Positions 1 through 39,866 of a stretch of 40,464 nt of DNA are shown piece after piece. Source of the DNA: a virus (lineage: Duplodnaviria > Heunggongvirae > Uroviricota > Caudoviricetes); the IMG/VR virus record IMGVR_UViG_643348545_000008, positions 1 to 40,464 of that record; one strand, given 5' to 3'. Numbering within the stretch: position 1 is the stretch's first letter; every line of letters starts with the position of its first letter. Under the pieces are notes generated by a model. The model was not told the origin of the DNA, ran no database searches, and saw only the letters and a list, made by a program, of their open reading frames with translations. The position numbers were made by a program, and so were the translations under genes.

Positions 1-1131
1 TCAAATGACCAGTTTTTTCCATTCCTTACCGCGTGCGTCGTTGTAAATATCGGTCATTTTTTGATGCGAATGGCCTAGCAAAATTTTGGTATCAACCCCC
101 TGCTCTCTGAACAATCGCTCTGATAAAGATCTCTGCTCATGGAAAGAGGGAGGGGTGCCATTAGCACGCCAGTTGTAATCCACAGAATCCCGGGCTTTTT
201 TAAATGCAACGGTTAATGTTGCTGGCTTAACCATCCCGCCGCGCTTAGCTGTCCCTTTCGCGTGATGGTGGTGCAATAGCCACGGACTAAGAACGCAATC
301 GCGGCAGGATGACACCACATCATCCAGGGTGAGATTTAATTTATCGCAACGCAGAGCCAGAGGGATGGCAATCCGGGTTCCTGTTTTTTGCTGTTCGACA
401 TGAAGATAACCATCCCGGATATCCGAAAATTGCATTTTGCAAATATCTGAAAGGCGCTGGCCTGTCATCAGTGCCAGCAGCATACCGCGCTGTAAAAAGT
501 AACCATCCTTTTCCGCTGCGTTATAAATCATCATCCACTCATCAAAAGTCAGTCGCTGTCTTGATATCCGCACCTGCGGTTTTTTTGCCGATTCTGCAGG
601 GTTAAAGCCTGGCGGGACATCGCCCGTTTGCTGAGCTTCCCGGAAAACATCGATCAGTACTTTCCTGAAAATTTGTCCCATTCTGTTATGTCCTCTGGCC
701 TTGTACTCTTCCAGTACTGATACCACATCTTTTACGGTTATGGCATCTAACGGTCTGGTGCCAAAACGTTCATCAAATACCCTGAGAGGGGCCGCTTTCT
801 GTTTCAGCGTGTTGAGTTTGATCTCGCCGTTTTCATATCTTTCCTGTTGAATTTTTCTGTAATTATTCAGAAAAATGGTAACGGTTGATGAACCGCCGGT
901 ATCACTAATAATTTTCTCCTGCAGACTGAGCATTTGTTCCATTTGCTGCCGGGCAAGACGGCTGTTCGCTTCTGCTGCAATAGTTTCTGCCAGTTTCTGG
1001 TCAATACTGCCGAGACCGTGATTTTTGCCTGTTATGGGATGCCTGTAACGCCAGTAAACTTTGTTATTTCTTTTGTCAAAATACGGAGATAATCCCGGAA
1101 CATCGGTTTTATATTTTCGCGGGCGCGCCAT
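1..1131 (-). CDS. int: Phage tyrosine integrase (376 aa)
   Basis: Full-length minus-strand ORF ending at the window edge. Carries tyrosine-recombinase motifs (TGQRLSDI box; LLGHSHQKMTDIY near the C-terminus). Sits next to an Xis-like gene. Confidence 0.85.
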   Translation of the reverse strand: MARPRKYKTDVPGLSPYFDKRNNKVYWRYRHPITGKNHGLGSIDQKLAETIAAEANSRLARQQMEQMLSLQEKIISDTGGSSTVTIFLNNYRKIQQERYENGEIKLNTLKQKAAPLRVFDERFGTRPLDAITVKDVVSVLEEYKARGHNRMGQIFRKVLIDVFREAQQTGDVPPGFNPAESAKKPQVRISRQRLTFDEWMMIYNAAEKDGYFLQRGMLLALMTGQRLSDICKMQFSDIRDGYLHVEQQKTGTRIAIPLALRCDKLNLTLDDVVSSCRDCVLSPWLLHHHHAKGTAKRGGMVKPATLTVAFKKARDSVDYNWRANGTPPSFHEQRSLSERLFREQGVDTKILLGHSHQKMTDIYNDARGKEWKKLVI

Positions 1132-1766: not shown

Positions 1767-1783
1767 AAGGTAATGACTCCAAC

Positions 1784-2287
1784 TTACTGATAGTGTTTTA
1801 TGTTCAGATAATGCCCGATGACCTTGTCATGCAGCTCCACCGATTTTGAGAACGACAGTGACTTCCGTCCCAGCCTTGCCAGATGTTGTCTCAGATTCAG
1901 ATTATGTCGCTCAATGCGCTGAGTGTAACGCTTGCTGATAACGTGCAGCTTTCCCTTCAGGCGTGATTCATACAGCGGCCAGCCATCCGTCATCCATACC
2001 ACGACCTCAAAGGCCGACAGCAGGCTCAGAAGACGCTCCAGTGTGGCCAGAGTGCGTTCACCGGAGACGTGCGCCACAACAGTCCTCCGTATCCTGTCAT
2101 ACGCGTAAAACAGCCAGCGCTGACGTGATTTAGCACCGACGTAGCCCCACTGTTCGTCCATTTCAGCGCAGACAATCACATCACTGCCCGGTTGTATGCG
2201 CGAGGTTACCGACTGCGGCCTGAGTTTTTTAAGTGACGTAAAACCGTGTTGAGGCCAACGCCCATAATGCGTGCACTGGCGCGACAT
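1784..2287 (-). CDS. insB: IS1 InsB transposase frame (167 aa ORF; expressed as InsAB' by frameshift)
   Basis: Protein matches IS1 InsB. It overlaps the insA 3' end as in IS1. Confidence 0.9.
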
Positions 2288-2481
2288 CCGACGCCATTCA
2301 TGGCCATATCAATGATTTTCTGGTGCGTACCGGGCTGAGAGGCGGTGTAAGTGAACTGTAGTTGCCATGTTTTACGGCAATGAGAGCAGAGATAGCGCTG
2401 ATGTCCGGCAGTGCTTTTGCCGTTACGCACCACGCCTTCAGTAGCGGAGCAGGAAGGACATCTGATGGAAATGGAAGCCAC
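2206..2481 (-). CDS. insA: IS1 InsA (91 aa)
   Basis: Protein [43 protein letters not shown] matches IS1 InsA. Confidence 0.9.
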
Positions 2482-2632
2482 GCAAGCACCTTAAAATCAC
2501 CATCATACACTAAATCAGTAAGTTGGCAGCATTACCCGACGCCTGATGAAATACATGACGAAGCAAAAGATATTTTCTTTAACTACTGCAATTACTCATA
2601 TCACGAAATAAAAGACGAAGAGGAAGAGCAAA

Positions 2633-3879: not shown

Positions 3880-4035
3880 ATGAAGCAGCAAAAGGCGATG
3901 TTAATCGCCCTGATCGTCATCTGTTTAACCGTCATAGTGACGGCACTGGTAACGAGGAAAGACCTCTGCGAGGTACGAATCCGAACCGGCCAGACGGAGG
4001 TCGCTGTCTTCACAGCTTACGAACCTGAGGAGTAA
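3880..4035 (+). CDS. hok: Hok/Gef-family type I toxin (51 aa)
   Basis: MKQQKAMLIALIVICLTVIVTALVTRKDLCEVRIRTGQTEVAVFTAYEPEE is a clear Hok/Gef family sequence. A short upstream ORF ends at ATGA overlapping the start. A terminator follows. Confidence 0.85.
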   Translation: MKQQKAMLIALIVICLTVIVTALVTRKDLCEVRIRTGQTEVAVFTAYEPEE

Positions 4036-5911: not shown

Positions 5912-6286
5912 ATGCTCATAGATTTGGTTTTACCTTACCCGCCGACGGTGAACACTTACTGGCGACGCCGTGGCAGCACATATTTTGTATCAAAAGCCGG
6001 GGAGCGTTATCGCCGGGCAGTGGCGCTTATTGTTCGCCAGCAGCGCTTGAAATTAAGCCTGTCCGGACGGTTGGCAATAAAAATTATTGCAGAACCACCG
6101 GATAAGCGCCGCCGTGACCTGGACAATATTCTGAAAGCGCCGCTGGATGCGCTGACGCATGCGGGGTTGCTAATGGACGATGAGCAGTTTGATGAAATCA
6201 ATATCGTTCGTGCTCAGCCAGTATCTGGTGGACGTCTGGGGGTGAAGATTTACCCCATAATGCTTGAAGGGCAGGTCAAAAAATGA
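5912..6286 (+). CDS. rusA: Holliday junction resolvase RusA (124 aa)
   Basis: PYPPTVNTYWRRRG ... RRRDLDNILKAPLDAL ... GGRLGVKI are characteristic RusA motifs. Located just upstream of Q. Confidence 0.85.
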   Translation: MLIDLVLPYPPTVNTYWRRRGSTYFVSKAGERYRRAVALIVRQQRLKLSLSGRLAIKIIAEPPDKRRRDLDNILKAPLDALTHAGLLMDDEQFDEINIVRAQPVSGGRLGVKIYPIMLEGQVKK

Positions 6287-7104
6287 AACTGGAAGATTTA
6301 CCGAAATACTACTCCCCAAAATCCCCCGGCCTGACTGATGCATCGGCCTCAACGTCGAAAGATGCGCTGAGTATCACTGATGTGATGGCCGCGCAGGGCA
6401 TGACACAGAATCGGGCTGAGATGGGGTTTTCTGCGTTCCTGGGGAAAATGGGCATTAGTATGAATGACAGAGAGCGGGCAACAGAATTGCTGACAGAATA
6501 TGCACTCAGTCGGTGCGATCGTGTGGCGGCGTTGAGAAAACTTCCGGCAGAAATAAAACCGGTAGTGATGCGCATTATGGCTTCGTACGCTTTTGAGGAT
6601 TATGCCCGCAGCGCAGCGAGTAAAAAGCAGTGCCCCTGTTGCCGAGGGGAAAAATTTATTGAAGGCGAAGTTTTTACAAACAAGGTTCAGTATCCGGATG
6701 GCAAGCCGCCAGTATGGGCAAAGTGTACGAAAGGTGTGTATCCGTCTTACTGGGAAGAATGGAAAAAAATTCGGGAGGTGGTGAAAGTTTCTTGTCCTGA
6801 ATGTAAAGGGAAGGGGGAGATTTCCACTGCCTGTAAAGACTGCCGTGGGCGTGGTGTCGCCATTCATCGTGAAGAGTCGGTAAAACGTGGTATGCCTGTT
6901 ATCAGAGACTGCCAGCGTTGTGGTGGTCGTGGCTGTGAAAGACTACCATCAACGGAGGCATTTAATGCCATACGCAAAGTGACGAGTGCTATCACGCTTG
7001 ATACGTGGAAAAAATCAGTGAAACGCTTTTACGATACGTTGGTGGTTCGGTTTGACATTGAAGAGGCATGGGCGGAGCGGCAGTTAAAGAGGGTAACGCG
7101 ATAG
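6283..7104 (+). CDS. Late-gene antiterminator Q (Qin/phage-82-type, 273 aa)
   Basis: Overlaps the rusA stop (ATGA). Multiple CxxC zinc-finger pairs and an MKLEDLPKYYSPK N-terminus like QuuQ-type antiterminators. Followed by a promoter-terminator pair. Confidence 0.75.
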   Translation: MKLEDLPKYYSPKSPGLTDASASTSKDALSITDVMAAQGMTQNRAEMGFSAFLGKMGISMNDRERATELLTEYALSRCDRVAALRKLPAEIKPVVMRIMASYAFEDYARSAASKKQCPCCRGEKFIEGEVFTNKVQYPDGKPPVWAKCTKGVYPSYWEEWKKIREVVKVSCPECKGKGEISTACKDCRGRGVAIHREESVKRGMPVIRDCQRCGGRGCERLPSTEAFNAIRKVTSAITLDTWKKSVKRFYDTLVVRFDIEEAWAERQLKRVTR

Positions 7105-7109
7105 TGTTG

Positions 7110-7137
7110 TTGATTTTTCCCGAATCTGTGGTAAATT
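7110..7137 (+). promoter_or_regulatory. Candidate late promoter pR' (-35 TTGATT, 16-nt spacer, extended -10 TGgTAAATT)
   Basis: Sigma70-like hexamers directly after the Q stop, where pR'/qut is expected. Confidence 0.45.
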
Positions 7138-7186
7138 TGCCCTAACGATGGGCGTTTTATGCCTGACGTTAGAAGATTTTTTACAC

Positions 7187-7209
7187 CCCGCCGCCTGGCG
7201 GGTTTTTTA
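7187..7209 (+). terminator. Candidate tR' terminator
   Basis: cccgcc-gcct-ggcggg hairpin plus tttttt, about 50 nt downstream of the candidate pR'. Confidence 0.5.
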
Positions 7210-7330
7210 TGACTGAAATCGCGTCAGTACAGTAAACGCGCTGGTGGCGGTGAATACCTGTCTTTCAGCTTGCTGGCTTTTTCGACAAGAGTTATTGGTG
7301 TGTCACGTTAACCGGAAAAGGGAAAAAGAC

Positions 7331-7528
7331 ATGCTGAAACAGCAGGATATGACCGAAACCGCCAGAGTGGTGTTTAATGAATTAAGTGCCACCGAACCGG
7401 CGACAGTCGGGGAGATTGCGCAGAATACTTACCTTTCACGTGAACGCTGCCAGTTAATACTGACCCAGCTTGTTATGGCGGGACTGGCAGACTATCAGTT
7501 CGGTTGTTACAGACGCCTTCAGTCCTGA
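7331..7528 (+). CDS. Small putative winged-helix DNA-binding protein (65 aa)
   Basis: ATG with an aaaaggga RBS. ATVGEIAQNTYLSRERCQLILTQLVMAGLADY resembles a helix-turn-helix. Followed by a terminator. Confidence 0.4.
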   Translation: MLKQQDMTETARVVFNELSATEPATVGEIAQNTYLSRERCQLILTQLVMAGLADYQFGCYRRLQS

Positions 7529-7539
7529 AGGCTTTTTTA
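7515..7539 (+). terminator. Intrinsic terminator
   Basis: gccttcag-tcc-tgaaggc hairpin followed by tttttt. Confidence 0.55.
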
Positions 7540-7678
7540 TTTGTGGTAAATGGGCGGCTGGTGGGTGTTAGGGGCACTCACCAGCCATCTGCTCATGCGT
7601 CCGGATCACAAGCAAACCTCAGGCCCACTGCTTTGCGCAAAAGCAGAATGAGCCTATCAGAGACAGGCTTAATGATCC

Positions 7679-8737
7679 ATGCTTAATACTGTAAAAATAT
7701 CCAGTTGTGAGTTAATCAACGCCGACTGCCTGGAATTTATCCGGTCGTTACCCGAAAATTCTGTTGACCTGATAGTCACGGACCCGCCGTACTTTAAAGT
7801 GAAGCCTGAGGGCTGGGATAACCAGTGGAAGGGCGACGATGATTACCTGAAATGGCTGGACCAGTGTCTGGCGCAGTTCTGGCGGGTGCTGAAACCTGCC
7901 GGAAGTCTTTACCTGTTCTGTGGCCATCGCCTGGCGTCTGACATTGAAATCATGATGCGTGAACGCTTCAATGTGCTGAACCATATTATCTGGGCGAAGC
8001 CGTCCGGACGCTGGAACGGGTGCAACAAGGAAAGCCTGAGGGCATATTTCCCCGCCACAGAGCGCATTCTGTTCGCGGAACATTATCAGGGGCCGTATCG
8101 CCCGAAAGATGCCGGGTATGAGGCGAAGGGCAGGGCACTGAAACAGCATGTGATGGCCCCGCTGATTTCTTACTTTCGTGATGCGCGTGCTGCCCTGGGG
8201 ATAACGGCAAAACAGATTGCTGATGCCACAGGAAAGAAAAACATGGTGTCGCACTGGTTCAGTGCCAGCCAGTGGCAGCTACCGGACGAAAGCGATTATC
8301 TGAAATTACAGGCGCTGTTTGCCCGGGTGGCAGAAGAGAAGCATCAGCGCGGAGAACTGGAAAAGCCACATCACCAACTGGTCAGCACATACAGTGAACT
8401 GAACCGGTAGTATACGGAACTGCAGAGTGAATATAAGCATCTGCGGCGGTATTTTGGTGTGACGGTGCAGGTGCCGTACACCGATGTGTGGACGCATAAA
8501 CCGGTGCAGTACTATCCCGGGAAACATCCGTGCGAAAAACCGGCAGAAATGCTGCAGCAGATAATCAGCGCGAGCAGTCGTCCGGGTGACCTGGTTGCAG
8601 ATTTCTTCATGGGGTCAGGTTCGACAGTCAAAGCAGCGATAGCGCTGGGACGTCGTGCAACTGGCGTTGAGCTGGAGACTGAGCGTTTTGAGCAGACGGT
8701 CAGGGAAGTTCAGAATTTAGTCAGTCAGAACGGATGA
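7679..8737 (+). pseudogene. DNA methyltransferase (N6-adenine/N4-cytosine type) interrupted by one in-frame amber codon at 8408..8410
   Basis: ORFs 7679..8410 (DPPY motif) and 8459..8737 (FFMGSGST SAM-binding motif) are in the same frame. Only one TAG separates them and the 16 codons in between are open. Confidence 0.6.
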
Positions 8738-8777
8738 TATTGCAGAATTAGTTACGTACCGTTATTATCCTATGCCC

Positions 8778-8853
8778 GGCCCTTTAGCTCAGTGGTGAGA
8801 GCGAGCGACTCATAATCGCCAGGTCGCTGGTTCAAATCCAGCAAGGGCCACCA
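8778..8853 (+). tRNA. tRNA with CAT anticodon, closest to E. coli tRNA-Ile2 (ileX/ileY-like; formally Met/Ile)
   Basis: 76-nt cloverleaf with GGCCCTT/AAGGGCC acceptor stem, anticodon loop CTCATAA, TTCAAAT T-loop and encoded CCA. Confidence 0.8.
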
Positions 8854-8862
8854 TATCACATA

Positions 8863-8939
8863 CCGCCATTAGCTCATCGGGATAGAGCGCCAGCCTTCGA
8901 AGCTGGCTGCGCGGGGTTCGAGTCCTCGATGGCGGTCCA
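8863..8939 (+). tRNA. tRNA-Arg (anticodon TCG)
   Basis: 77-nt cloverleaf with CCGCCAT/ATGGCGG acceptor stem, anticodon loop CTTCGAA, TTCGAGT T-loop and encoded CCA. The discriminator base is unusual. Confidence 0.7.
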
Positions 8940-9217
8940 TTATCTGCATTATGCGTTGTTGGTTCTGATGAGTGAATCATTGTCTTTTGAGCAACAGGCT
9001 ATCATATAAGATAGCCTCAGACTTCCTTGTTTATTCTCGCCGGATGCTTCGTAGATATTTGCAGGCATCTGTATGCAGGGGTATTATTGCGGCATATATC
9101 ATCCGGAAAAATAAAAACTACATGCTGATCCGGAGATGATAGTTACAAGTCCTCCCGGATCCCGCATATTTACTATATTTTATAGATAATTGTTCTTGTT
9201 AATATGGAGATGGATAA

Positions 9218-9646
9218 ATGTATTGCCGTGCTGTACCAGTTCTTGTTTTGATATTAGCCAGTCTGACAACTGGCTGCACAAAAGATGTATCGACAAATAA
9301 TTATGATGCTTCTCTGTATCACTCAGATAAATTAATAAAGTCGCAAAATTTGAGCTCATCGGAACGTACCCCTGATGCCAGTGAAGAAATCAGGCAGTAT
9401 GCCATTCAGGTCAGGAAAGCCATAGAAGAACAGTTAAAGGATGCGAGTAAGTATTCAGGAAAAGAGTGTTCACTGAGAATGTATATGGCCCCGAATGGTC
9501 TTCTGCTACAGGTTAAAAGAGAAAGCGGTGATCCCGATTTATGTCGTGAAGCGATGAATGCAGTAAAGAATGCTGATATACCATCACCACCGTCTTCAGG
9601 AGTATATAAAGCATTTAGAAATGGCGTGCTGGATTTTAAACTCTGA
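9218..9646 (+). CDS. Lipoprotein with TolA C-terminal (domain III)-like domain (142 aa)
   Basis: Signal peptide with lipobox-like LTTGC. Residues 55-142 align by eye with E. coli TolA domain III (GKECSLRMYMAPNGLLLQVKRESGDPDLC...IPSPPSSGVYKAFRNGVLDFK versus GKTCTLRIKLAPDGMLLDIKPEGGDPALC...IPKPPSQAVYEVFKNAPLDFK). ggag RBS. Confidence 0.7.
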   Translation: MYCRAVPVLVLILASLTTGCTKDVSTNNYDASLYHSDKLIKSQNLSSSERTPDASEEIRQYAIQVRKAIEEQLKDASKYSGKECSLRMYMAPNGLLLQVKRESGDPDLCREAMNAVKNADIPSPPSSGVYKAFRNGVLDFKL

Positions 9647-10171: not shown

Positions 10172-12160
10172 ATGACATTTAAACACTACGATGTGGTCAG
10201 GGCGGCGTCGCCGTCAGACCTTGCGGAGCGACTGACACAAAAACTGAAGGAGGGGTGGCAGCCATTTGGCAGCCCTGTCGCCATCACGCCTTATACCCTG
10301 ATGCAGGCCATTGCGGCGGAAGGTGATGTCACCACACCTGTGGTGGTGAAGCCGTCGGATGGAGAAGGCACAGTTATCAGCACCACCAGCGAACCGGAGT
10401 ATTACTTTGTTGTTGTTCTGGCGGGGCAGTCAAACTCAATGTCTTTTGGTGAAGGGCTGCCGCTGCCGGAGACATATGACCGTCCGGACCCGCGTATTAA
10501 ACAGCTGGCGCGTCGCAGTACGGTGACGCCGGGTGGTGCCGCCTGTAAATATAACGACATCATTCCGGCAGACCACTGTCTGCATGATGTGCAGGATATG
10601 AGTAACCTGAATCATCCTGAAGCGGACCTTAATAAAGGGCAGTACGGTTGTGTGGGGCATGCTCTGCATGTTGGCAAAAAGCTGCTGCCGTTTATGCCTG
10701 CGAATGCGGGTATCCTTCTTGTTCCATGTGGCCGTGGCGATTCGGGATTTACTGCGGGGGCCGAGGGGGCGTTTAACGCAGCGTCGGGAGCGACCGCAGG
10801 CTCGTCCCTGTGGGGGGCGGATAAACCGCTGTATTATGACCTGGTCAGCAGAACCCGTGCGGCCCTGAAGAAAAATCCGAAGAACGTGCTGTTATCAGTG
10901 ATCTGGATGCAGGGAGAAAAAGATGTCAGTTCGGGGAGACATGCAGAACACAATGCGCTTTTCCTTGCCATGGTAAATCAGTTCCGTACGGAACTGGCAG
11001 ATGTGGCAGAGCAGTGTACTGGCGGGACAACGGCCAGCGTCCCGTGGATTTGCGGTGATACCACGTACTACTGGAAGGAAAGGTATGCAGCGCCGTATGA
11101 GGCGGTTTACGGTGGGTATAAAGGCAAAGCTGCGCAGAATATTCACTTTGTGCCGTTGATGACGGATGAGCATGGTGTGAATGTGCCGACAAACGAGCCG
11201 TCAGAAGATCCGGACATTATCCCGGCGGGATACTATGGCGCTGCGTCACGCACTGCCAGTAACTGGACGTCAGCCGATCGTAAAACGCACTTCAGTTCAT
11301 GGGCGCGAAGAGGCCTTGTTTCAGACCGCCTGGCAGGTGCCATTTTGCAGTACGCCGGGCGGACATTATCGTTCCTTACCGGGCAGAGCGCACCGCAGTC
11401 GGGTGGTACAACTCCCGGTGATGATGTCAGTCCGGGGGTACCGGGTGTTGAGAAACCGCAGGATGGCGGTGTTGCTGGTACTGGTCATGATGAGGCCGTG
11501 AGCAGTACCAGGACGGTGGCTGAATATGATGCGAACAGTGGAAATGGTGTATGGACAGAGCAGCAGTGGGGGGCTGCCGGTGGCAAAGGCACTGTGACTG
11601 ATGACGGTGGACGGAAAGCGCTGCGACTGGAAAAACAGCCCGGTAAACTGACGTCCTGGAAAATGTTCTGTACTGTTGCAGTGGAGGAGGCAAAAAATCT
11701 TCTCAGCAAGGGGGGTGAAATTGCCGTACGGTTCAAAATTCCGGACGGAAGCGAACTGGTGAACGGACAGTTTGTCTTTGGTCTCTACTGGCCGGTGTCG
11801 CAGTGGGCGTCAGGCGCGGCAGCAAACAGTATGCTGGCATCATTCTTCCTTCAGACGGATGCATCAAATCTGAATCTTATGCACCACAAGGGCACGTCGA
11901 ATGCACAACTGGGTACATTTGGTGCGTTTGACCATAACTGGCATACGGTTGTTTTCCGCTTTGCGGGAAATAACAGCGAAAGAGTCGTTCCGGTGATTGA
12001 TGGTACAGAGCAGACGGCGTTTGACCTTGTGATGTGGACAAATGATGGCTTTACAGCAGATACGCTGACGCTGACAGATATCACGGGGGCAAAAGCGACG
12101 TATCCGGTACTGCTTGATACGGTCACAGTCAAAGTTAACGAAAGCCGGGCATCATCATAA
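10172..12160 (+). CDS. nanS-p: Prophage sialate O-acetylesterase, NanS-p-like (DUF1737 N-terminus + SASA esterase domain, 662 aa)
   Basis: N-terminal MTFKHYDVV...GWQPFG module. VVLAGQSNSMSFGEG serine-esterase motif. gggagga RBS. Sits between the Q-tRNA region and the lysis genes, as nanS-p does in Stx-type prophages. Confidence 0.75.
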   Translation: MTFKHYDVVRAASPSDLAERLTQKLKEGWQPFGSPVAITPYTLMQAIAAEGDVTTPVVVKPSDGEGTVISTTSEPEYYFVVVLAGQSNSMSFGEGLPLPETYDRPDPRIKQLARRSTVTPGGAACKYNDIIPADHCLHDVQDMSNLNHPEADLNKGQYGCVGHALHVGKKLLPFMPANAGILLVPCGRGDSGFTAGAEGAFNAASGATAGSSLWGADKPLYYDLVSRTRAALKKNPKNVLLSVIWMQGEKDVSSGRHAEHNALFLAMVNQFRTELADVAEQCTGGTTASVPWICGDTTYYWKERYAAPYEAVYGGYKGKAAQNIHFVPLMTDEHGVNVPTNEPSEDPDIIPAGYYGAASRTASNWTSADRKTHFSSWARRGLVSDRLAGAILQYAGRTLSFLTGQSAPQSGGTTPGDDVSPGVPGVEKPQDGGVAGTGHDEAVSSTRTVAEYDANSGNGVWTEQQWGAAGGKGTVTDDGGRKALRLEKQPGKLTSWKMFCTVAVEEAKNLLSKGGEIAVRFKIPDGSELVNGQFVFGLYWPVSQWASGAAANSMLASFFLQTDASNLNLMHHKGTSNAQLGTFGAFDHNWHTVVFRFAGNNSERVVPVIDGTEQTAFDLVMWTNDGFTADTLTLTDITGAKATYPVLLDTVTVKVNESRASS

Positions 12161-12298: not shown

Positions 12299-12481
12299 AT
12301 GACATTTGTTCATCAGGTGATGCTGTACTTCTGTACGGCAGTCTGTGTTATGTATCTTCTTTCGGGTGGGTACAGGGCAGTGCGCGATTTCTGGCGCAGG
12401 CAGATTGATAAAAGGGCCGCAGAGAAAATCAGTGCCAGTCAGTCAGCCGGAAGCAAACCTGAAGATCCGCTCATTCCGTAG
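12299..12481 (+). CDS. Small membrane protein (60 aa), hypothetical
   Basis: ORF with an N-terminal hydrophobic helix. Weak RBS. Confidence 0.3.
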   Translation: MTFVHQVMLYFCTAVCVMYLLSGGYRAVRDFWRRQIDKRAAEKISASQSAGSKPEDPLIP

Positions 12482-12518
12482 TCACTTTCTTGACAACACC
12501 TTTCAACGAGAAAATCCT

Positions 12519-12809
12519 ATGTCAGAAATAAAATCGCTGGTCACTGCTGAGGCAGTGAAGGAAGTCCTGCGCTCTGAAGAAGTCCGGAGCGCACTGAAAC
12601 AGCAACTTCGGCAGAACCTTGAGGCGCGTCTTGATGCAGAAGTGGATGCCATTCTGGATGAATTGCTTGGTGCACAGCCGGAACCATCCCCGGAACTGCT
12701 TCCGGAACCACAGGCGGAAGATGTCACCACGGAAAATGGTGATATTCAGCCGGAGTCACCGGTGACGGATATGACAGACACACAACCCGAACCGGGCACA
12801 ATGCTGTAA
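12519..12809 (+). CDS. Acidic Pro/Glu-rich hypothetical protein (96 aa)
   Basis: Internal ATG of ORF 12345..12809. Followed by a hairpin plus T-run terminator around 12823..12853. Confidence 0.4.
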   Translation: MSEIKSLVTAEAVKEVLRSEEVRSALKQQLRQNLEARLDAEVDAILDELLGAQPEPSPELLPEPQAEDVTTENGDIQPESPVTDMTDTQPEPGTML

Positions 12810-30700: not shown

Positions 30701-30967
30701 GCCGGGCTGATGGGGGAAGCCGGACCTGAAGCCATAATGCCCCTGACCCGGGCGGCGGATGGCTCGCTGGGCGTACGTGCCGTGGGCAGGATGAACGGGA
30801 GTGCGGGTCTGGTGTATTCCCCGGTCTACCACATCGCCATTCAGAATGACGGGGCCAACGGTCAGATAGGGCCGGAGGCGGCAGGCAGCCTTGTGCAGCT
30901 GATTGACCAGCGGGTGCAGGCGGTGATGCTGTCCATGCGACGAGACGGAGGAATGCTGAGTGGCTGA
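27725..30967 (+). CDS. Tail tape measure protein (lambda H-like, 1080 aa)
   Basis: Very long Ala/Gln-rich alpha-helical protein between G/GT and M. Confidence 0.85.
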   Translation: MATLRELIIKISANSQSFQSEIQRASRMGSEYYRTLQNGGRQAAAVAREQRRALAELNSQLTEIRASAAGTAGAFAGAFATGHLISLADEWSSVNARLKQASQSSDEFSSSQKVLMDISQRTGTAFSDNAALFARSAASMREYGYSAGDVLKVTEAISTGLKISGASTAEAGSVITQFSQALAQGVLRGEEFNSVNESGDRIVRALAAGMGVARKDLKAMADDGKLTADKVVPALISQLGVLRDEYAAMPETVSGSITKVENAFMAWVGGANEASGATKTLSGVLNGVAGHIDNVATAAGALVAVGVARYFGNMASGAVSATAGLVTAARNEVALAEAQLRGTQIATARARAAVYRAQQAVAAARGTEMQIAAEARLAATQERLNRNIAARTAAQNALNSTTAVGSRLMTGALGLVGGVPGLVMLGAAAWYTLYQNQEQARESARQYALTIDEIAHKTPSMSLPEASDNEGRTRAALAEQNRLIDEQASRVKSLQEKIAGYQYVLANPGWTTGDGFMINHLTSVKTVTEGLSQATEQLAVEQSRLAQMQEKAQSIQDVLAGLEDRRVALIRQQAAEQNKVYQSMLVMNGQHTEFNRLLGLGNELLQQRQGLVNVPLRLPQATLDDKQQSALTKTERELALSRLKGEEKERARLGYAADDLGFVGDSYQEARQRYISNALEAWRNNEANKPKSRGGKSETEKAEDSFSRLLKQQKEQLALAGQNTELAKLKYQTAQGELKTLTEMQKHELLRNAALIDQQKIREQLRSREETLKNDNVAARASNEAELLGYGQGERARERMRELQQIRDSFRQKDADLQSQYQTGDISEDFYRQARAQNAQYLSERLKDQAAFYAESDAQRADWQKGLQEGLSNWVDNASDYASQAAQLATEGISGMVNNITEMLNGNKVEWRNWASSVLQEISKVLMNAAIVNGIKTAANSMSGAGGFIGSIGDWLGGAVANAKGGVYTSANLSAYSNSIVDTPTYFAFAKGAGLMGEAGPEAIMPLTRAADGSLGVRAVGRMNGSAGLVYSPVYHIAIQNDGANGQIGPEAAGSLVQLIDQRVQAVMLSMRRDGGMLSG

Positions 30968-31301
30968 GATAAAAACGCTGCATCTGGTCCCGCGTGAAGG
31001 GATGCAGGTGAGTGAGAAACCGTCGGTGGTGAGGGTCCGGTTTGGTGACGGTTATGAACAGCGCCGACCGACGGGACTGAATGCCCAACTGAAGACGTTT
31101 CAGGCGGTGTTCCGGGTGACGGATGAGGCGACCCGGCGCTGGCTGGATGAATTTTTATCGTGGCATGGTGGTTACCGTGCCTTTTTGTGGCGACCGCCGA
31201 AACATAACCGGACGGTGAGGGTGGTGTGCCGGGAGTGGAGTATTACGGATAACGCCAGGTACAGCGATTTCAGTTGTATGATGGAACAGGTAATAAGATA
31301 A
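30960..31301 (+). CDS. M: Minor tail protein M (113 aa)
   Basis: VRFGDGYEQRRPTGLNAQLKT ... HGGYRAFLWRPP resembles lambda gpM (VRFGDGYSQRAPAGLNANLKT ... HGGWKSFLWTPP). Confidence 0.8.
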   Translation: MAEIKTLHLVPREGMQVSEKPSVVRVRFGDGYEQRRPTGLNAQLKTFQAVFRVTDEATRRWLDEFLSWHGGYRAFLWRPPKHNRTVRVVCREWSITDNARYSDFSCMMEQVIR

Positions 31302-31507: not shown

Positions 31508-32671
31508 ATGAAAAAAATGACAGTGGCACTTTCAGCTGTGGCAGCAGCTGTAATTTTTGCAGCGGGGGCGCAGGCTGCAGAAGTATACAATAAAGATGGC
31601 AATAAACTTGATGTGTATGGGCGTGCAACTGCACTCCATTATTTCTCCAGTGATAAGGGGGATGATGGAGATAAGACATACGCACGTCTGGGCTTTAAAG
31701 GTGAAACTCAGATTAATGACCAGTTGACTGGTTTTGGTCAGTGGGAATATCAGTTCTCTGGTAATAAAGCTGAATCAGAGGGTGCTGCGGGTAATAAAAC
31801 CCGTCTTGCATTTGCAGGTCTGAAGTTTGGTGAGTTTGGCACCATTGATTATGGTCGTAACTATGGTATTGCGTACGATGTTGGTTCTTATACTGACGTA
31901 TTACCAGAGTTTGGCGGTGATGGCTGGACCCAGACCGATAACTTCATGACAGCCCGTACTTCCGGGGTATTAACCTATCGTAATACAGATTTCTTTGGGC
32001 TTGTCGATGGCCTGAATTTTGCGGCACAGTACCAGGGTAAAAATGATCGGGGTGATCTCCGGAAAGCTAATGGTGATGGTCACGGTTTCTCAGCCAGTTA
32101 TGAATATGAAGGTTTTGGTATCGTTGCCGCATATATTAATGCGGACCGAACCAATAATCAGGAAAAAGGTCTGAATGGTACTCTGACGATTGAACAAACT
32201 GATCCTTTAACCGGTAAAGTGACTGAAAAGCAGATCGTTGTTGATTCCGGTAGTGTTGCAAAAGGTAAACACGCTGAGATGTGGGGAGTCGGACTAAAAT
32301 ACGATGCTGACAACCTTTACCTGGCTACAACATATTCCGAAACTCAGAATCTGACGACCTTTGGTGATAAAGGAGTTGCAGATAAAGCGCAAAACTTTGA
32401 AGCGGTACTGCAGTATCAGTTTGATTTCGGTCTGCGTCCATCTCTGGCATTCCTGCAGTCTCGTGCTCAGGATGTCATTGTAGGTGGTAAAAACTATGGT
32501 GACCAGGATTTGGTTAAGTATGTTGACGTAGGTGCGAAATATTACTTCAATAAAAATATGTCCACCTATGTTGATTATAAAATCAATCTGGTTGATGAGA
32601 ATAAGTTTACCAGGGATGCGGGCATTGCAACGGATGATATCGTTGCTGTTGGTATGACTTATCAGTTCTGA
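31508..32671 (+). CDS. Outer-membrane general porin, OmpC/NmpC/Lc family (387 aa)
   Basis: Signal peptide ending [19 protein letters not shown]-terminus. Conserved PEFGGD and [13 protein letters not shown] motifs. C-terminal ...YQF. Confidence 0.85.
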
Positions 32672-32852: not shown

Positions 32853-32866
32853 ATGGGTGGATGTTT

Positions 32867-33565
32867 ATGCAGGAGATCAACGAAGAAAGCCTGAATGAGT
32901 CGGTTAAATCAGAGCAGTCACCGCGGGTGGTACTCTGGGAAATTGACCTGACGGTGCAGGGTGGTGAGCGGTATTTTTTCTGTAATGAGCTGAATGAAAA
33001 AGGGGAGCCGGTCACCTGGCAGGGGCGGAAGTACCAGGCATACCCGATTGACGGCAGCGGCTTTGAGATGAACGGGAAAGGGAGCAGTGCCCGCCCGTCA
33101 CTGACGGTGTCGAATCTGTTCGGGCTGGTTACCGGGATGGCGGAGGATTTGCAGAGCCTGGTGGGGGCCACGGTGGTTCGTCGCCGGGTGTATGCGCGTT
33201 TTCTGGATGCGGTGAATTTTGTGGCAGGCAATCCGGAGGCTGACCCGGAGCAGGAGCTGACGGACCGCTGGGTGGTGGAGCAGATGTCGCAGCTCACAGC
33301 CATGACGGCCTCGTTTGTGCTGGCGACACCGACGGAGACGGACGGTGCGTTGTTTCCCGGCCGCATCATGCTGGCGAACACCTGTATGTGGACCTACCGC
33401 TCTGATGAGTGTGGTTACACGGGCGGGGCGGTGGCGGATGAGTTCGATAAACCCACCACCGATATCCGTAAGGACAGATGCAGCAAGTGCATGCGCGGGT
33501 GTGAACTGCGCAGGAATGTCGGCAATTTTGGCGGTTTCCTTTCCATTAATAAACTTTCGCAGTAA
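32867..33565 (+). CDS. L: Minor tail protein L (about 232 aa)
   Basis: VVLWEIDLTVQGGERYFFCNELNEKGEPVTWQGRKYQAYPI is near-identical to the lambda gpL N-terminus. Ends GNFGGFLSINKLSQ. Confidence 0.85.
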   Translation: MQEINEESLNESVKSEQSPRVVLWEIDLTVQGGERYFFCNELNEKGEPVTWQGRKYQAYPIDGSGFEMNGKGSSARPSLTVSNLFGLVTGMAEDLQSLVGATVVRRRVYARFLDAVNFVAGNPEADPEQELTDRWVVEQMSQLTAMTASFVLATPTETDGALFPGRIMLANTCMWTYRSDECGYTGGAVADEFDKPTTDIRKDRCSKCMRGCELRRNVGNFGGFLSINKLSQ

Positions 33566-35073: not shown

Positions 35074-35106
35074 CAGGCATCCTCCGGGGTGCCTGTTGTT
35101 TTTTGG
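35074..35106 (+). terminator. Hairpin plus T-tract, candidate terminator just upstream of J
   Basis: caggca-(10 nt)-tgcctg followed by ttgttttttgg. Confidence 0.4.
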
Positions 35107-35147
35107 GCATAAACAGATTCAGACATCAGACAGGAGAGGGGGACAGA

Positions 35148-37539
35148 GTGGGTAAAGGTGGCGGCAAGGCACACACGCCTCGTGAGGCGAAGGATAATCT
35201 CAAATCCACGCAGATGATGAGCGTGATTGATGCCATTGGTGAGGGACCGATAGAAGGTCCGGTGAAGGGACTGCAGAGTATCCTGGTGAACAAAACCCCG
35301 CTGACGGACACGGACGGTAATCCCGTGATACACGGTGTGACCGCCGTCTGGCGTGCCGGGGAGCAGGAGCAGACACCACCGGAAGGCTTTGAGTCCTCCG
35401 GAGCTGAAACTGTACTGGGTGTGGAAGTGACGAAGGCAAAACCGGTGACACGCACCATTACGTCAGCGAACATTGACCGCCTGCGGGTGACCTTCGGGGT
35501 GCAGTCACTGGTGGAGACCACGTCAAAGGGTGACCGTAATCCGACGTCTGTCCGCCTGCTGATTCAGCTTGAGCGTGGTGGTAAATGGATGACGGAAAAG
35601 GATGTCACCATTAACGGCAAGACCACCTCGCAGTTCCTGGCGTCGGTGATTCTGGATAATCTGCCGCCCCGGCCCTTTAACATCCGGATGGTCAGGGAGA
35701 CGGCGGACAGCACCACGGACCAGCTGCAGAATAAGACGCTCTGGTCGTCATACACCGAAATCATCGATGTGAAACAGTGCTACCCGAACACGGTCATTGT
35801 GGGGCTGCAGGTGGATGCGGAGCAGTTCGGCGGCCAGCAGATGACGGTGAACTACCATATCCGTGGTCGCATCATCCAGGTGCCGTCAAACTATGACCCG
35901 GAAAAACGCACGTACAGCGGTATCTGGGACGGCAGTCTGAAACCGGCATACAGCAACAACCCGGCCTGGTGTCTGTGGGACATGCTGACTCACCCGCGCT
36001 ACGGCATGGGAAAACGCCTGGGGGCGGCGGATGTGGACAAGTGGGCGCTGTATGCCATCGGGCAGTACTGCGACCAGACGGTCCCGGATGGTTTCGGGGG
36101 CACAGAGCCGCGGATGACCTTTAATGCGTACCTGGCACAACAGCGTAAGGCATGGGACGTGCTCAGTGATTTCTGCTCGGCGGTTCCGGATTAACGCACC
36201 GGCAGCGCCTGCCGGTGTTGAACTGACGCCGGGGTATTTTCAGATAACGGCAGTCCCGCGTCTTGCGGTGTATGACCCGACGGTGCAGTTTGAGTTCTGG
36301 TTTTCGGAGGCAAAAATTGCAGACGCCGCACAGGTGGAAACCTCTGTCCGTTATCTGGGGACCGGCAGTCAGTGGAGTGTCTCCGGTCCGCACATTAAGC
36401 CCGGAAAGGATTTCTGGTTTTATGTGCGCAGCGTCAACCTGGTGGGTAAATCTGCTTTTGTGGAAGCCAGTGGACGGGCGAGCAATGATGCTGCGGGCTA
36501 TCTGGAACTTTTCCGGGAAAAGATAGGAAAACTGCATCTGGCAGAGGCGCTGTGGGCAGAGATTGACAACAGTCAGCTGAAGGACGAGATGGCGGAAATG
36601 CAGACCACCATCACCGAAACCCGCAATGAAATCACACAGACGGTCAGTAAAACGCTGGAGGACCAGAGCGCCACCATACAGCAGATACAGCGCGTGCAGA
36701 AGGACACAAATGATGACCTTGCTGCACTTTACATGCTGAAGGTACAGAAAACAAAAAATGGCATACCCTATGTTGCCGGTATTGGAGCGGGGATTGAGGA
36801 TACTGATGGCCAGCCCCTGAGCAACATACTGCTGCTGGCTGACCGTATTGCGATGATTAACCCGGAGGACGGCAACACCACGCCGTTATTTGTGGCGCAG
36901 GGGAATCAGTTGTTCATGAACGATGTGTTCCTGAAGCGACTGTTTGCGGTGAGTATCACCTCGTCCGGCAATCCCCCGACGTTTTCCCTGACGCCGGAGG
37001 GCAGGCTGACCGCAAGAAATGCTGATATCAGCGGTAACGTGAATGCGAATTCCGGGACGCTCAACAACGTCACGATTAACGAGAACTGTCGGGTTCTGGG
37101 AAAACTGTCCGCGAACCAGATTGAAGGCGATCTCGTTAAAACAGTGGGCAAAGCTTTCCCCCGGGATTCCCGTGCACCGGAGCGGTGGCCATCAGGGACC
37201 ATTACCGTCAGGGTTTATGACGATCAGCCGTTTGACCGGCAGATTGTTATTCCGGCGGTGGCATTCAGTGGCGCTAAGCATAAGAGAGAGCATACTGATA
37301 TTTACTCCTCATGCCGTCTGATAGTGCGGAAAAACGGTGCTGAAATTTATAACCGTACCGCGCTGGATAATACGCTGATTTACAGTGGCGTTATTGATAT
37401 GCCTGCCGGTCACGGTCACATGACACTGGAGTTTTCGGTGTCAGCATGGCTGGTAAATAACTGGTATCCCACAGCAAGTATCAGCGATTTGCTGGTTGTG
37501 GTGATGAAGAAAGCCACTGCAGGCATCACGATTAGCTGA
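35148..37539 (+). pseudogene. J: Central tail fibre / host-specificity protein J with internal out-of-frame deletion (N-terminal part 35148..36194, C-terminal part about 36190..37539)
   Basis: First ORF matches the lambda J N-terminus (KAHTPREAKDNLKSTQ ... [10 protein letters not shown]) then stops. A second ORF in another frame matches the J C-terminal third ([19 protein letters not shown] ... [10 protein letters not shown] ...). About 400 central residues are absent. Confidence 0.7.
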
Positions 37540-37606: not shown

Positions 37607-38206
37607 ATGCGTAAAGTTTGTGCAGCCATTTTGTCCGCAGCCATCTGTCTGTCCGTATCCGGTGCGCCTGCATGGGCGTCTGAGCAGCAGGCCACGCTGA
37701 GTGCGGGGTATCTTCATGCCCTGACGAACACTACCGGTAGTGATGATCTGAACGGGATTAACGTGAAATACCGTTATGAATTTACGGACACGCTGGGGCT
37801 GATTACGTCATTCAGTTATGCCAATGCTGAAGGTGAGCAAAAAACGCACTACAACGATACCCGCTGGCATGAGGATTCTGTGCGTAACCGCTGGTTCAGC
37901 GTGATGGCGGGGCCATCTGTGCGCGTGAATGAATGGTTCAGCGCTTATGCGCTGGCCGGAGTGTCGTATGCCCGGGTGTCGTCTTTTGCCGGTGATTATG
38001 TGACCCTCACGTCAGATGAGGGTAAAAAGCAGGAGCACCTGACCCGTTCGGACAGCGGACGCCGCAGCCATACCGCACTGACATACAGTGCAGGCGTGCA
38101 GATTAACCCGACAGAAAATATCGTGGTCGACCTGGCTTATGAAGCCTCAGGACGTGGTGACTGGCGTACGGAGGCGTTTATTGTCGGCACCGGATACCGG
38201 TTCTGA
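37607..38206 (+). CDS. lom: Outer membrane protein Lom (Ail/PagC family, 199 aa)
   Basis: Signal peptide. Beta-barrel signature ending GTGYRF. Position immediately after J as in lambda. Confidence 0.85.
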   Translation: MRKVCAAILSAAICLSVSGAPAWASEQQATLSAGYLHALTNTTGSDDLNGINVKYRYEFTDTLGLITSFSYANAEGEQKTHYNDTRWHEDSVRNRWFSVMAGPSVRVNEWFSAYALAGVSYARVSSFAGDYVTLTSDEGKKQEHLTRSDSGRRSHTALTYSAGVQINPTENIVVDLAYEASGRGDWRTEAFIVGTGYRF

Positions 38207-38357: not shown

Positions 38358-39866
38358 ATGACAGTCAGAATATCGGGCGTGCTGAAGGACGGCACCGGGA
38401 AGCCGGTGCCGGGATGCACCATAGAGCTGAAAGCGCGACGCACCACAGAGACAGTGATAGTCACCACGGTGGCGCAGGGGCAGCCGGGGGAAACCGGCAG
38501 TTACAGTTTTGATGTGGAGCCGGGGTGGTACCGGGTGACGCTGAACACGGAAGGGTACGCCCCGTCGTATGTGGGTGACATTCTGGTGAAGGCGGATTCT
38601 GAGCCGGGAACGCTGAATAAATTTCTGATGGAACAGGATGAGGCGCAGTATTACCCGAAAGCGCTTGCAGAGCTGGAAGCGGTGGCAGCGGAAATCCTGA
38701 AGCGTGCTGAAGCGTCGGCGGCGAGTGCAGAGGAAGCGAAGAAACGGGCAGAGAATGCCCGGGGACCGGCGGGCGAGAAGGGAGACACAGGTCCACAGGG
38801 TGCCACAGGGGCACAGGGACCAGCCGGGGCAACGGGGGCGGTCGGACCAAAAGGTGAGCCGGGGCCAAAGGGAGAACGGGGAGAAACAGGTCCACAGGGA
38901 CCGAAGGGCGATAAAGGTGACCCGGGCGGACCGCCGGGGCCGAAAGGTGACACCGGCCCACGTGGAGAGGCCGGACCACCCGGACCACAGGGTCCGGCAG
39001 GGCAAACCGGCCCGAAAGGGGATAAAGGTGAACCCGGCGCAACAGGTCCGGCAGGTCCCGCAGGCCCTCGGGGAGAAACCGGCCCCGCAGGTCCTGCGGG
39101 TCCCGCAGGCAGTGTCGCCAGTGTTCCGGATGCCAGCACATCACAGAAAGGTGTTGTACAGCTGAGCAGCGATACCAACAGCGATGATGAAACAAAAGCG
39201 GCAACCCCAAAGGCTGTGAAAGCGGTAATGGCAGAAGTGCAGGCGGCAAAAACGAAGGCAGAAGAGGCAGCAACCCGGGCAGCAGTCCCCGGACCGAAGG
39301 GGGACAGGGGGGAACCTGGCGCACCTGGTGCAGTGGGGCCCGCAGGCCCACGGGGACCGGCTGGTGCAGCTGGTCCCAAAGGTGATGCAGGCCCGGCAGG
39401 GCCACGAGGTGAAAGGGGACCTGCGGGGGCACAGGGTGTTCCGGGGCCGGTTGGTCCGGCAGGTCCTGCGGGTAAAACGGGGCCACGAGGTTTGCAGGGA
39501 GAAACAGGAAGACAGGGCCCGACAGGTCCACAGGGCCCGACAGGTGAACCCGGACCACAGGGACCACAAGGGCCAACCGGAAGGCTGGTACCCGGGGAAA
39601 TTTACAGCATCGGAACATACATTATTGCCGCACTAGCCCCGTATACAACCGACATCGGCAGAACCTATCAGCCAGGAGAAACTGTACAGGGTTCACGCCT
39701 TAAGCGATGCGCCATAATCAAAGATGCAAGCGGGAACTATATGAAAGCTAACACCGATGGCATTGACGGCAACCTATCCTCAGTTCCGGGCTCATGGATG
39801 GTGTGTAATGAAATTACGTCGACAAATGACAATGAAGGCATCGGGCTGTTCCAGCGCGCATACTGA
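38358..39866 (+). CDS. stf: Side tail fibre protein with collagen-like G-X-Y repeats (Stf-like, 502 aa)
   Basis: N-terminus [28 protein letters not shown] matches lambda Stf. Two long Gly-X-Y tracts. The [28 protein letters not shown] motif is shared with Stf. Confidence 0.75.

Follow-up and report, generated by a model that had tools for sequence, protein, structure and literature searches.

The window analysed here, the whole stretch of 40,464 bases, is a lambdoid prophage. It opens with an integrase gene (1-1131, minus strand), followed by hokD, DUF968, RusA, the late antiterminator gene Q, an open reading frame (ORF) of 65 amino acids, a DNA methylase gene and two tRNA genes. Past the tRNAs come a gene for a lipoprotein with a TolA C-terminal domain, a SASA esterase gene, the lysis, terminase, head and tail genes, Lom and a tail fibre gene. 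The methylase gene occupies positions 7679-8737, and all features described from Q to the tRNAs lie on the plus strand. The sequence and the ORF listing, read from 7400 to 9300, give a single 352-codon frame for the methylase, interrupted only by a TAG at 8408-8410. The ORF that begins at ATG 7679 ends at this amber codon after 243 codons. Sixteen open codons (8411-8458) then lead, in frame, to GTG 8459, the first in-frame start past the stop and the sole plausible restart site. From this GTG (residue 261), the ORF list calls a mechanical ORF of 92 amino acids (8459-8737) that ends at the TGA at 8735-8737. The remainder of the gene after the amber codon amounts to 108 codons plus the TGA (8411-8737), and the frame thus adds up to 243 + 1 + 108 = 352 codons.

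The two parts on either side of the stop codon carry the elements of a beta-class DNA methyltransferase. The upstream 243 codons (7679-8407), recognised from the ORF list, Pfam PF01555 and the PHROG DNA-methyltransferase families, encode the initial portion of the catalytic domain, including motif IV (DPPY, 7781-7792, residues 35-38), and a helix-turn-helix target-recognition domain, with domain limits borrowed from the published M.EcoGII model (PMC11551740). The downstream 108 codons, which also match PF01555, encode the second catalytic part with the SAM-binding motif I, read as F-M-G-S-G (FxGxG) at 8606-8620 (residues 310-314). The N-terminal piece matches PF01555 (N6_N4_Mtase) over profile positions 1-107 (E 1e-17, 65.2 bits) and the C-terminal piece over positions 134-220 of 221 (E 4e-24, 86.3 bits), both above the gathering score of 26.7. 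Since the same Pfam model is matched in its first half by one piece and in its second half by the other, the two do not adjoin by chance. The order of DPPY (IV), recognition domain and FxGxG (I) is that of the beta class. A first-pass annotation had reported one frame at these coordinates with a single TAG and 16 open codons after it, the DPPY motif upstream and the SAM-binding motif downstream, and had predicted that read-through would yield a 352-residue beta-class methyltransferase. The ORF listing, the reading of the motifs, and the length and PF01555 match agree with it on each of these points. An uninterrupted polypeptide with both halves of the fold is absent from the locus. Since the TAG at 8408-8410 parts the two halves, we file the locus as a pseudogene of its family and not as a functional member.

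The surroundings of the gene are those of a lambdoid late region. Q (6283-7104; PF03589 Antiterm, E 1e-50; same synteny in relatives) defines the late operon that contains the methylase, and the 65-residue ORF (7331-7528) matches phrog_331. A terminator scan found a GC hairpin with a T run 3' of Q (7187-7211, hairpin 7187-7202), a candidate tR', and a second terminator-like hairpin with a T run (7515-7541, hairpin 7515-7532) after the 65-residue ORF and before the methylase. Read by eye, a weak promoter-like sequence at 7110-7137 (TTGATT-16-TAAATT) may be pR'-like; it falls below the scan threshold, and the sigma-70 promoter scan of the plus strand from Q to the methylase gave zero sites above threshold. 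In an intact phage, the methylase would be transcribed only after antitermination by Q. This reading is drawn from the position of the gene and fits the published account, in which lysogens keep M.EcoGI and M.EcoGII silent and constitutive expression does harm (PMC5778455). The first tRNA gene lies 40 nt past the end of the methylase. In all 40,464 bases, ARAGORN predicts just two tRNA genes, one with a CAT anticodon (8778-8853) and a tRNA-Arg with a TCG anticodon (8863-8939), the latter identical to the annotated tRNA-Arg next to the nearest intact methylase alleles (loci L005 and L006). There is no CTA-anticodon (amber suppressor) tRNA among the ARAGORN tRNAs of the window, in keeping with the earlier remark that neither of the two tRNAs is an amber suppressor. 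ARAGORN labels the CAT tRNA as Met. It is most likely a tRNA-Ile that reads AUA, because it is base-for-base identical to the ileZ or tRNA-Ile annotated in Stx phages and in RefSeq (four loci, L005 and L006 among them). The window prophage and phiP27 have two tRNA genes here, whereas most of the Stx-phage relatives have three.

The family to which the gene belongs is well known. The full 1059 nt match phage records at 86-96% DNA identity (megablast), always as a single annotated 'DNA methylase' CDS. The phages concerned are Stx2 phages, phiP27 and 1720a-02, and the matching gene is flanked by Q on one side and, on the other, by the ileZ/argN/argO tRNAs ahead of stxAB. The highest identity, 96%, is to the methylase of phage 1720a-02, which was named as a close relative of M.EcoGII in the work that described this enzyme as a non-specific adenine methyltransferase from a large prophage-borne E. 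coli family (Murray et al., 2018; PMC5778455). The nearest intact allele shares 329 of 349 residues (94%) with M.EcoGII, and the window protein, repaired by reading codon 244 as Gln, is likewise 94% identical over 349 residues. The reference sequence was taken from Table S1 of the SUPREM paper (PMC11551740), a PDF read by machine in which a few characters are evidently misread, and the true identity is for that reason probably slightly higher than 94%. E. coli 55989 carries a 349-residue copy, also 94% identical to M.EcoGII, in the order Q, small ORF, methylase and tRNA. The closest solved structures are those of other beta-class methylases, including M.RsrI and CcrM. Judged by its sequence and its place in a prophage, after Q (PF03589) and before the genes for tRNAs, lysis and morphogenesis, the window gene is, stop codon apart, a member of the M.EcoGI/M.EcoGII family.

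Comparison with the relatives brings out likeness and difference. M.EcoGII shows the beta-class order of motifs seen in the window protein (DPPY, recognition domain, FxGxG) and comes from the same type of element, a lambdoid prophage. It is intact with 349 residues, whereas the window copy has an amber codon at 244 and a C-terminus three residues longer (352). The lack of specificity of M.EcoGII is a characterised property, while the window allele and its intact parent are known from sequence alone. The Stx2 phages (for example Stx2a_1447/WGPS2, phiP27 and 1720a-02) share with the window the gene order of Q, 65-residue ORF, methylase, tRNAs and moron locus. Their methylase genes are intact, whereas that of the window is interrupted by the amber codon. 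Where the Stx2 phages have stx genes after the tRNAs, the window prophage has the gene for the lipoprotein with the TolA C-terminal domain. The latter (9218-9646) encodes a 142-residue protein with a lipoprotein-like signal (…LTTGC) and the TolA C-terminal domain (PF06519, E 6e-23), at the site past the tRNAs where Stx phages carry stxAB. An identical RefSeq protein is called 'TolA'. Speculatively, this could be a moron whose product hinders Tol-dependent entry of colicins or phages.

The origin of the stop codon can be read from close relatives. Twelve complete E. coli genomes hold an intact 352-residue allele (WP_021565040.1, 99.8% identical, annotated as DNA-methyltransferase) with the same neighbours. 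The window gene differs from the nearest intact alleles (L005 and L006) at only two of 1059 nt, positions 8338 and 8408, and downstream of 8408 there is no difference within the gene. Over 7105-9217, the window and L005 differ at three positions in total. At 8408 the window has T and the intact alleles have C, a transition that turns CAG (Gln244) into TAG and is the sole disabling difference. At 8338 the window encodes Glu220 and the 12 intact genomes Asp; the window state is the one common to M.EcoGII and the phage homologues, which leaves the nonsense change as the only derived change of the window gene. The four diverged phage homologues of the DNA alignment use CAG or CAA at codon 244, whose residue is Gln in E. 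coli 55989 and Lys in M.EcoGII. In IMG/VR, the flanking 27-mer was matched 19 times, each time with CAG, and none of the 14 matches with a full-length gene has an internal stop at codon 244. Deamination at a Dcm site was dropped as the cause of the C-to-T change, as the context ACCGGCAGT contains no CCWGG site. The proposal of a recent nonsense mutation, made in the first-pass annotation, is thus supported by intact alleles only two nucleotides away, with the change at 8408 as the disabling one. Both halves of the methylase are otherwise intact, and the divergence is so low that 'very recent' and 'still maintained' look the same.

The prophage around the gene is itself in decay. An IS1 element (1769-2536, minus strand; InsA 2206-2481, InsB 1784-2287) is flanked on one side by a truncated exonuclease gene of which the C-terminal 113 codons are left (1422-1766) and on the other by a truncated phrog_519 ORF (2633-2809). 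Genes for a repressor, Cro or replication are missing between integrase and Q, a stretch that holds a replication module in close relatives. The immunity and replication region has been lost to an IS1-associated deletion. The tail-tip gene J (35103-37539) has, compared with an intact gpJ gene of 3474 nt, an out-of-frame internal deletion of 1082 bp with its junction at 36182/36183. It leaves two overlapping, out-of-frame ORFs of 363 and 471 residues. From the IS1-associated loss together with the frameshifting deletion in J, we infer a cryptic prophage that would be unable to yield infectious phage. In such a cryptic element, an anti-restriction function for the phage would presumably no longer be under selection. 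Cryptic lambdoid prophages in E. coli, for example DLP12, Rac and Qin, show the same kind of decay, with insertion sequences accompanied by loss of immunity and replication genes, tail deletions and nonsense changes in accessory genes. By comparison with them, most late genes of the window prophage are still open, which places it at an early to intermediate stage.

Several other genes of the prophage deserve mention. A complete general porin gene (31508-32671; PF00267, E 2e-139, 387 residues) lies within the tail cluster, an unusual site for cargo. Its flanks are ORFs at 30960-31301 and 32861-33565, putatively gpM and gpL from the lambda-like order of tail genes. The deposited gene call at 12299-12809 is 511 nt long, not a multiple of three, with a product of 154 residues; relatives have two small genes here, DUF1378 and DUF826, and the call may be another fused or frameshifted gene. 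Typical lambdoid accessory genes include the SASA-family esterase (10172-12160), which Stx phage records list as 9-O-acetyl-N-acetylneuraminic acid deacetylase, the hokD toxin (3880-4035) and the outer-membrane protein Lom (37607-38206). The tail fibre (38358-39866) has collagen-like repeats.

The consequence of the stop codon for the protein can be placed on the published AlphaFold-based description of M.EcoGII. In this enzyme, the catalytic Rossmann domain is formed by residues 1-134 and 260-349, a four-helix recognition domain spans residues 160-237 with a charged linker between the domains, and the dimer interface involves residues 97-110 and 116-140 (PMC11551740). The numbering of the window protein and M.EcoGII is collinear up to residue 272, which puts codon 244 in the linker, before the segment with FxGxG. 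Our own single-sequence AlphaFold2 model of the intact allele was poor (mean pLDDT 40.8, pTM 0.26) and was excluded from domain placement; the position of residue 244 accordingly rests on the published model and the Pfam mapping. The 243-residue product retains the DPPY motif, the recognition domain and the reported dimer interface and is without the SAM-binding half. As this half with FxGxG is missing, the truncated product should be catalytically dead and should not methylate DNA.

Could the stop codon be an artefact, or could it be bypassed? The window is identical to E. coli ED1a (CU928162.2) over the 10.7 kb compared, with window position 2679 at record position 1398322. A single-base difference from the nearest relatives looks like the kind of thing an error in this record would produce, the true codon being CAG. 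The same 243-residue product, however, is found in 31 index blocks, and of the 24 contigs read 20 have the exact sequence; the nearest intact allele is on 250 contigs. The sources of the truncated product are ED1a, other NCBI isolates, gut-type metagenomes from ENA and Logan assemblies, and the downstream 92-residue ORF is likewise called on the contigs that bear it (about 20-30). Six further loci all translate to the truncated product, some of them with other flanking SNPs, and one contig with the TAG allele has a divergent DUF968/RusA module upstream; the methylase segment is identical in all compared. With so many independent assemblies agreeing, the suggestion of a sequencing error is rejected, and the chance that the record is wrong at this codon is close to nil. 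The TAG allele is heritable and is in circulation among members of a small natural lineage. Its presence on several slightly different flanks means that it has persisted long enough to acquire them, which is a point against the pseudogene reading. A real amber codon might still allow the full-length enzyme to be made at a lower level by suppression or read-through. A change from CAG to TAG is the one that a glutamine suppressor of the supE type repairs perfectly, restoring the parental protein, and position 244 accepts Gln or Lys in active relatives. Over-expressed M.EcoGII is harmful (PMC5778455), so attenuation of a toxic enzyme could be tolerated. Against this, the tRNAs of the window include no suppressor, and the defective prophage offers no evident selective benefit. 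The TAG is limited to one near-identical haplotype: it was seen only in copies identical across the gene and is not conserved in the other, more diverged homologues examined, as it would be in a recoded gene. The stop is followed by T, an efficient release context in E. coli termination studies, and strong amber suppressors are, to our knowledge, usually missing from natural isolates. We consider continued synthesis by suppression very unlikely, and the earlier idea of a gene expressed only in suppressor backgrounds finds no support.

A different set of readings lets the pieces themselves keep a function, either as an enzyme of two polypeptides (the 243-residue fragment and a product restarted at GTG 8459) or through the N-terminal fragment as a subunit that poisons intact enzymes of the M.EcoGII type. 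The polypeptide is broken in the linker between the domains, and GTG 8459 (residue 261) falls where the second catalytic segment begins (residue 260; PMC11551740). The C-terminal piece could conceivably be made, as an SD-like GCGGCGG stands about 10 nt 5' of the GTG, with a duplex dG of -6.3 kcal/mol as against -6.4 for the neighbouring TolA-like gene. The dimer-interface residues are all within the N-terminal fragment, beta-class methylases are thought to work as dimers (PMC7544214), and several copies of this gene are frequent in E. coli genomes (up to seven places per genome). A fragment with the dimer interface and recognition domain and without the SAM pocket could conceivably act in a dominant-negative way on the M.EcoGII-type enzymes of co-resident or superinfecting phages, and a rival phage would then be stripped of its anti-restriction methylation; or the fragments might reassemble into a split enzyme of low activity and lower toxicity. 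We give either outcome only a slim chance, and we regard retained function of the pieces in general as very unlikely. The SD-like bases are plain coding sequence that is also present in the intact homologues and thus nothing new, this sequence analysis gave no evidence that GTG 8459 is used as a restart, and one substitution from an intact gene leaves no time for adaptation. No homologue was found split at this place. Splits do occur elsewhere. In PHROGs, an N-terminal family (phrog_6025, 192 residues), matched by 7679-8407, is kept apart from a C-terminal family (phrog_6952, 181 residues), matched by 8459-8734, and a few phage records (Vibrio VP585, Hafnia yong2, Yersinia P840) have two features or pieces under the methylase match. 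One might take the PHROG division as a sign that the methylase is naturally bipartite, its two ORFs normally being separate genes. Yet the close annotated homologues are all single CDSs of about 349-352 residues, and a tblastn survey of phage records found 96 with a match, SfV, cdtI, mEp460, N15, PY54 and phiKO2 among them; in 94 of these, a single location matches 80% or more of the protein, which indicates that both parts are normally one gene. The PHROG split also falls near residue 170-200, unlike the break at 244, and the two families hence reflect other disrupted or mis-called copies. A bipartite enzyme is next to impossible on these grounds. Taken with the few split records, the PHROG division suggests that disruption or mis-calling of this methylase recurs at other positions.

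We put the probability at about 0.9 that the locus is, as its sequence and context suggest, a recent nonsense pseudogene of an M.EcoGI/M.EcoGII-family N6-adenine methyltransferase in a decaying prophage. Before the change, one gene of 352 codons, situated between Q and the tRNA/moron locus, would have encoded a beta-class N6-adenine DNA methyltransferase. In the E. coli ED1a lineage, a C-to-T transition at 8408 appears to have turned Gln244 (CAG) into an amber codon. Translation from ATG 7679 would now halt after 243 residues, giving a product that lacks the FxGxG half and is predicted not to methylate DNA. In intact phages, the enzyme would be made only during lytic growth, after antitermination by Q, and would weaken host restriction through broad methylation of the progeny DNA; this anti-restriction role combines a proposal from the literature with the position of the gene. 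In the window prophage, such a function would have been lost. The loss was probably neutral, because the immunity and replication region is gone and gene J carries a frameshifting deletion. The first-pass annotation was right about the beta class and the recent nonsense mutation. Its reading of a sequencing error is rejected and that of suppression lacks support, and it had missed both the M.EcoGII family and the defective state of the prophage.

This is ordinary gene decay in a well-characterised enzyme family, of a kind already known and with no new mechanism, and it matters little beyond showing what looks like a recent inactivation of an M.EcoGII-type methylase in a defective lambdoid prophage of E. 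coli ED1a. As no more than an idea, the break in the inter-domain linker of a widely used biotechnology enzyme is a candidate site for engineered split versions. For annotation, 7679-8737 should be marked as one pseudogene and not as two methyltransferase CDSs. In methylome work on strains like ED1a, no activity is to be expected from this gene.
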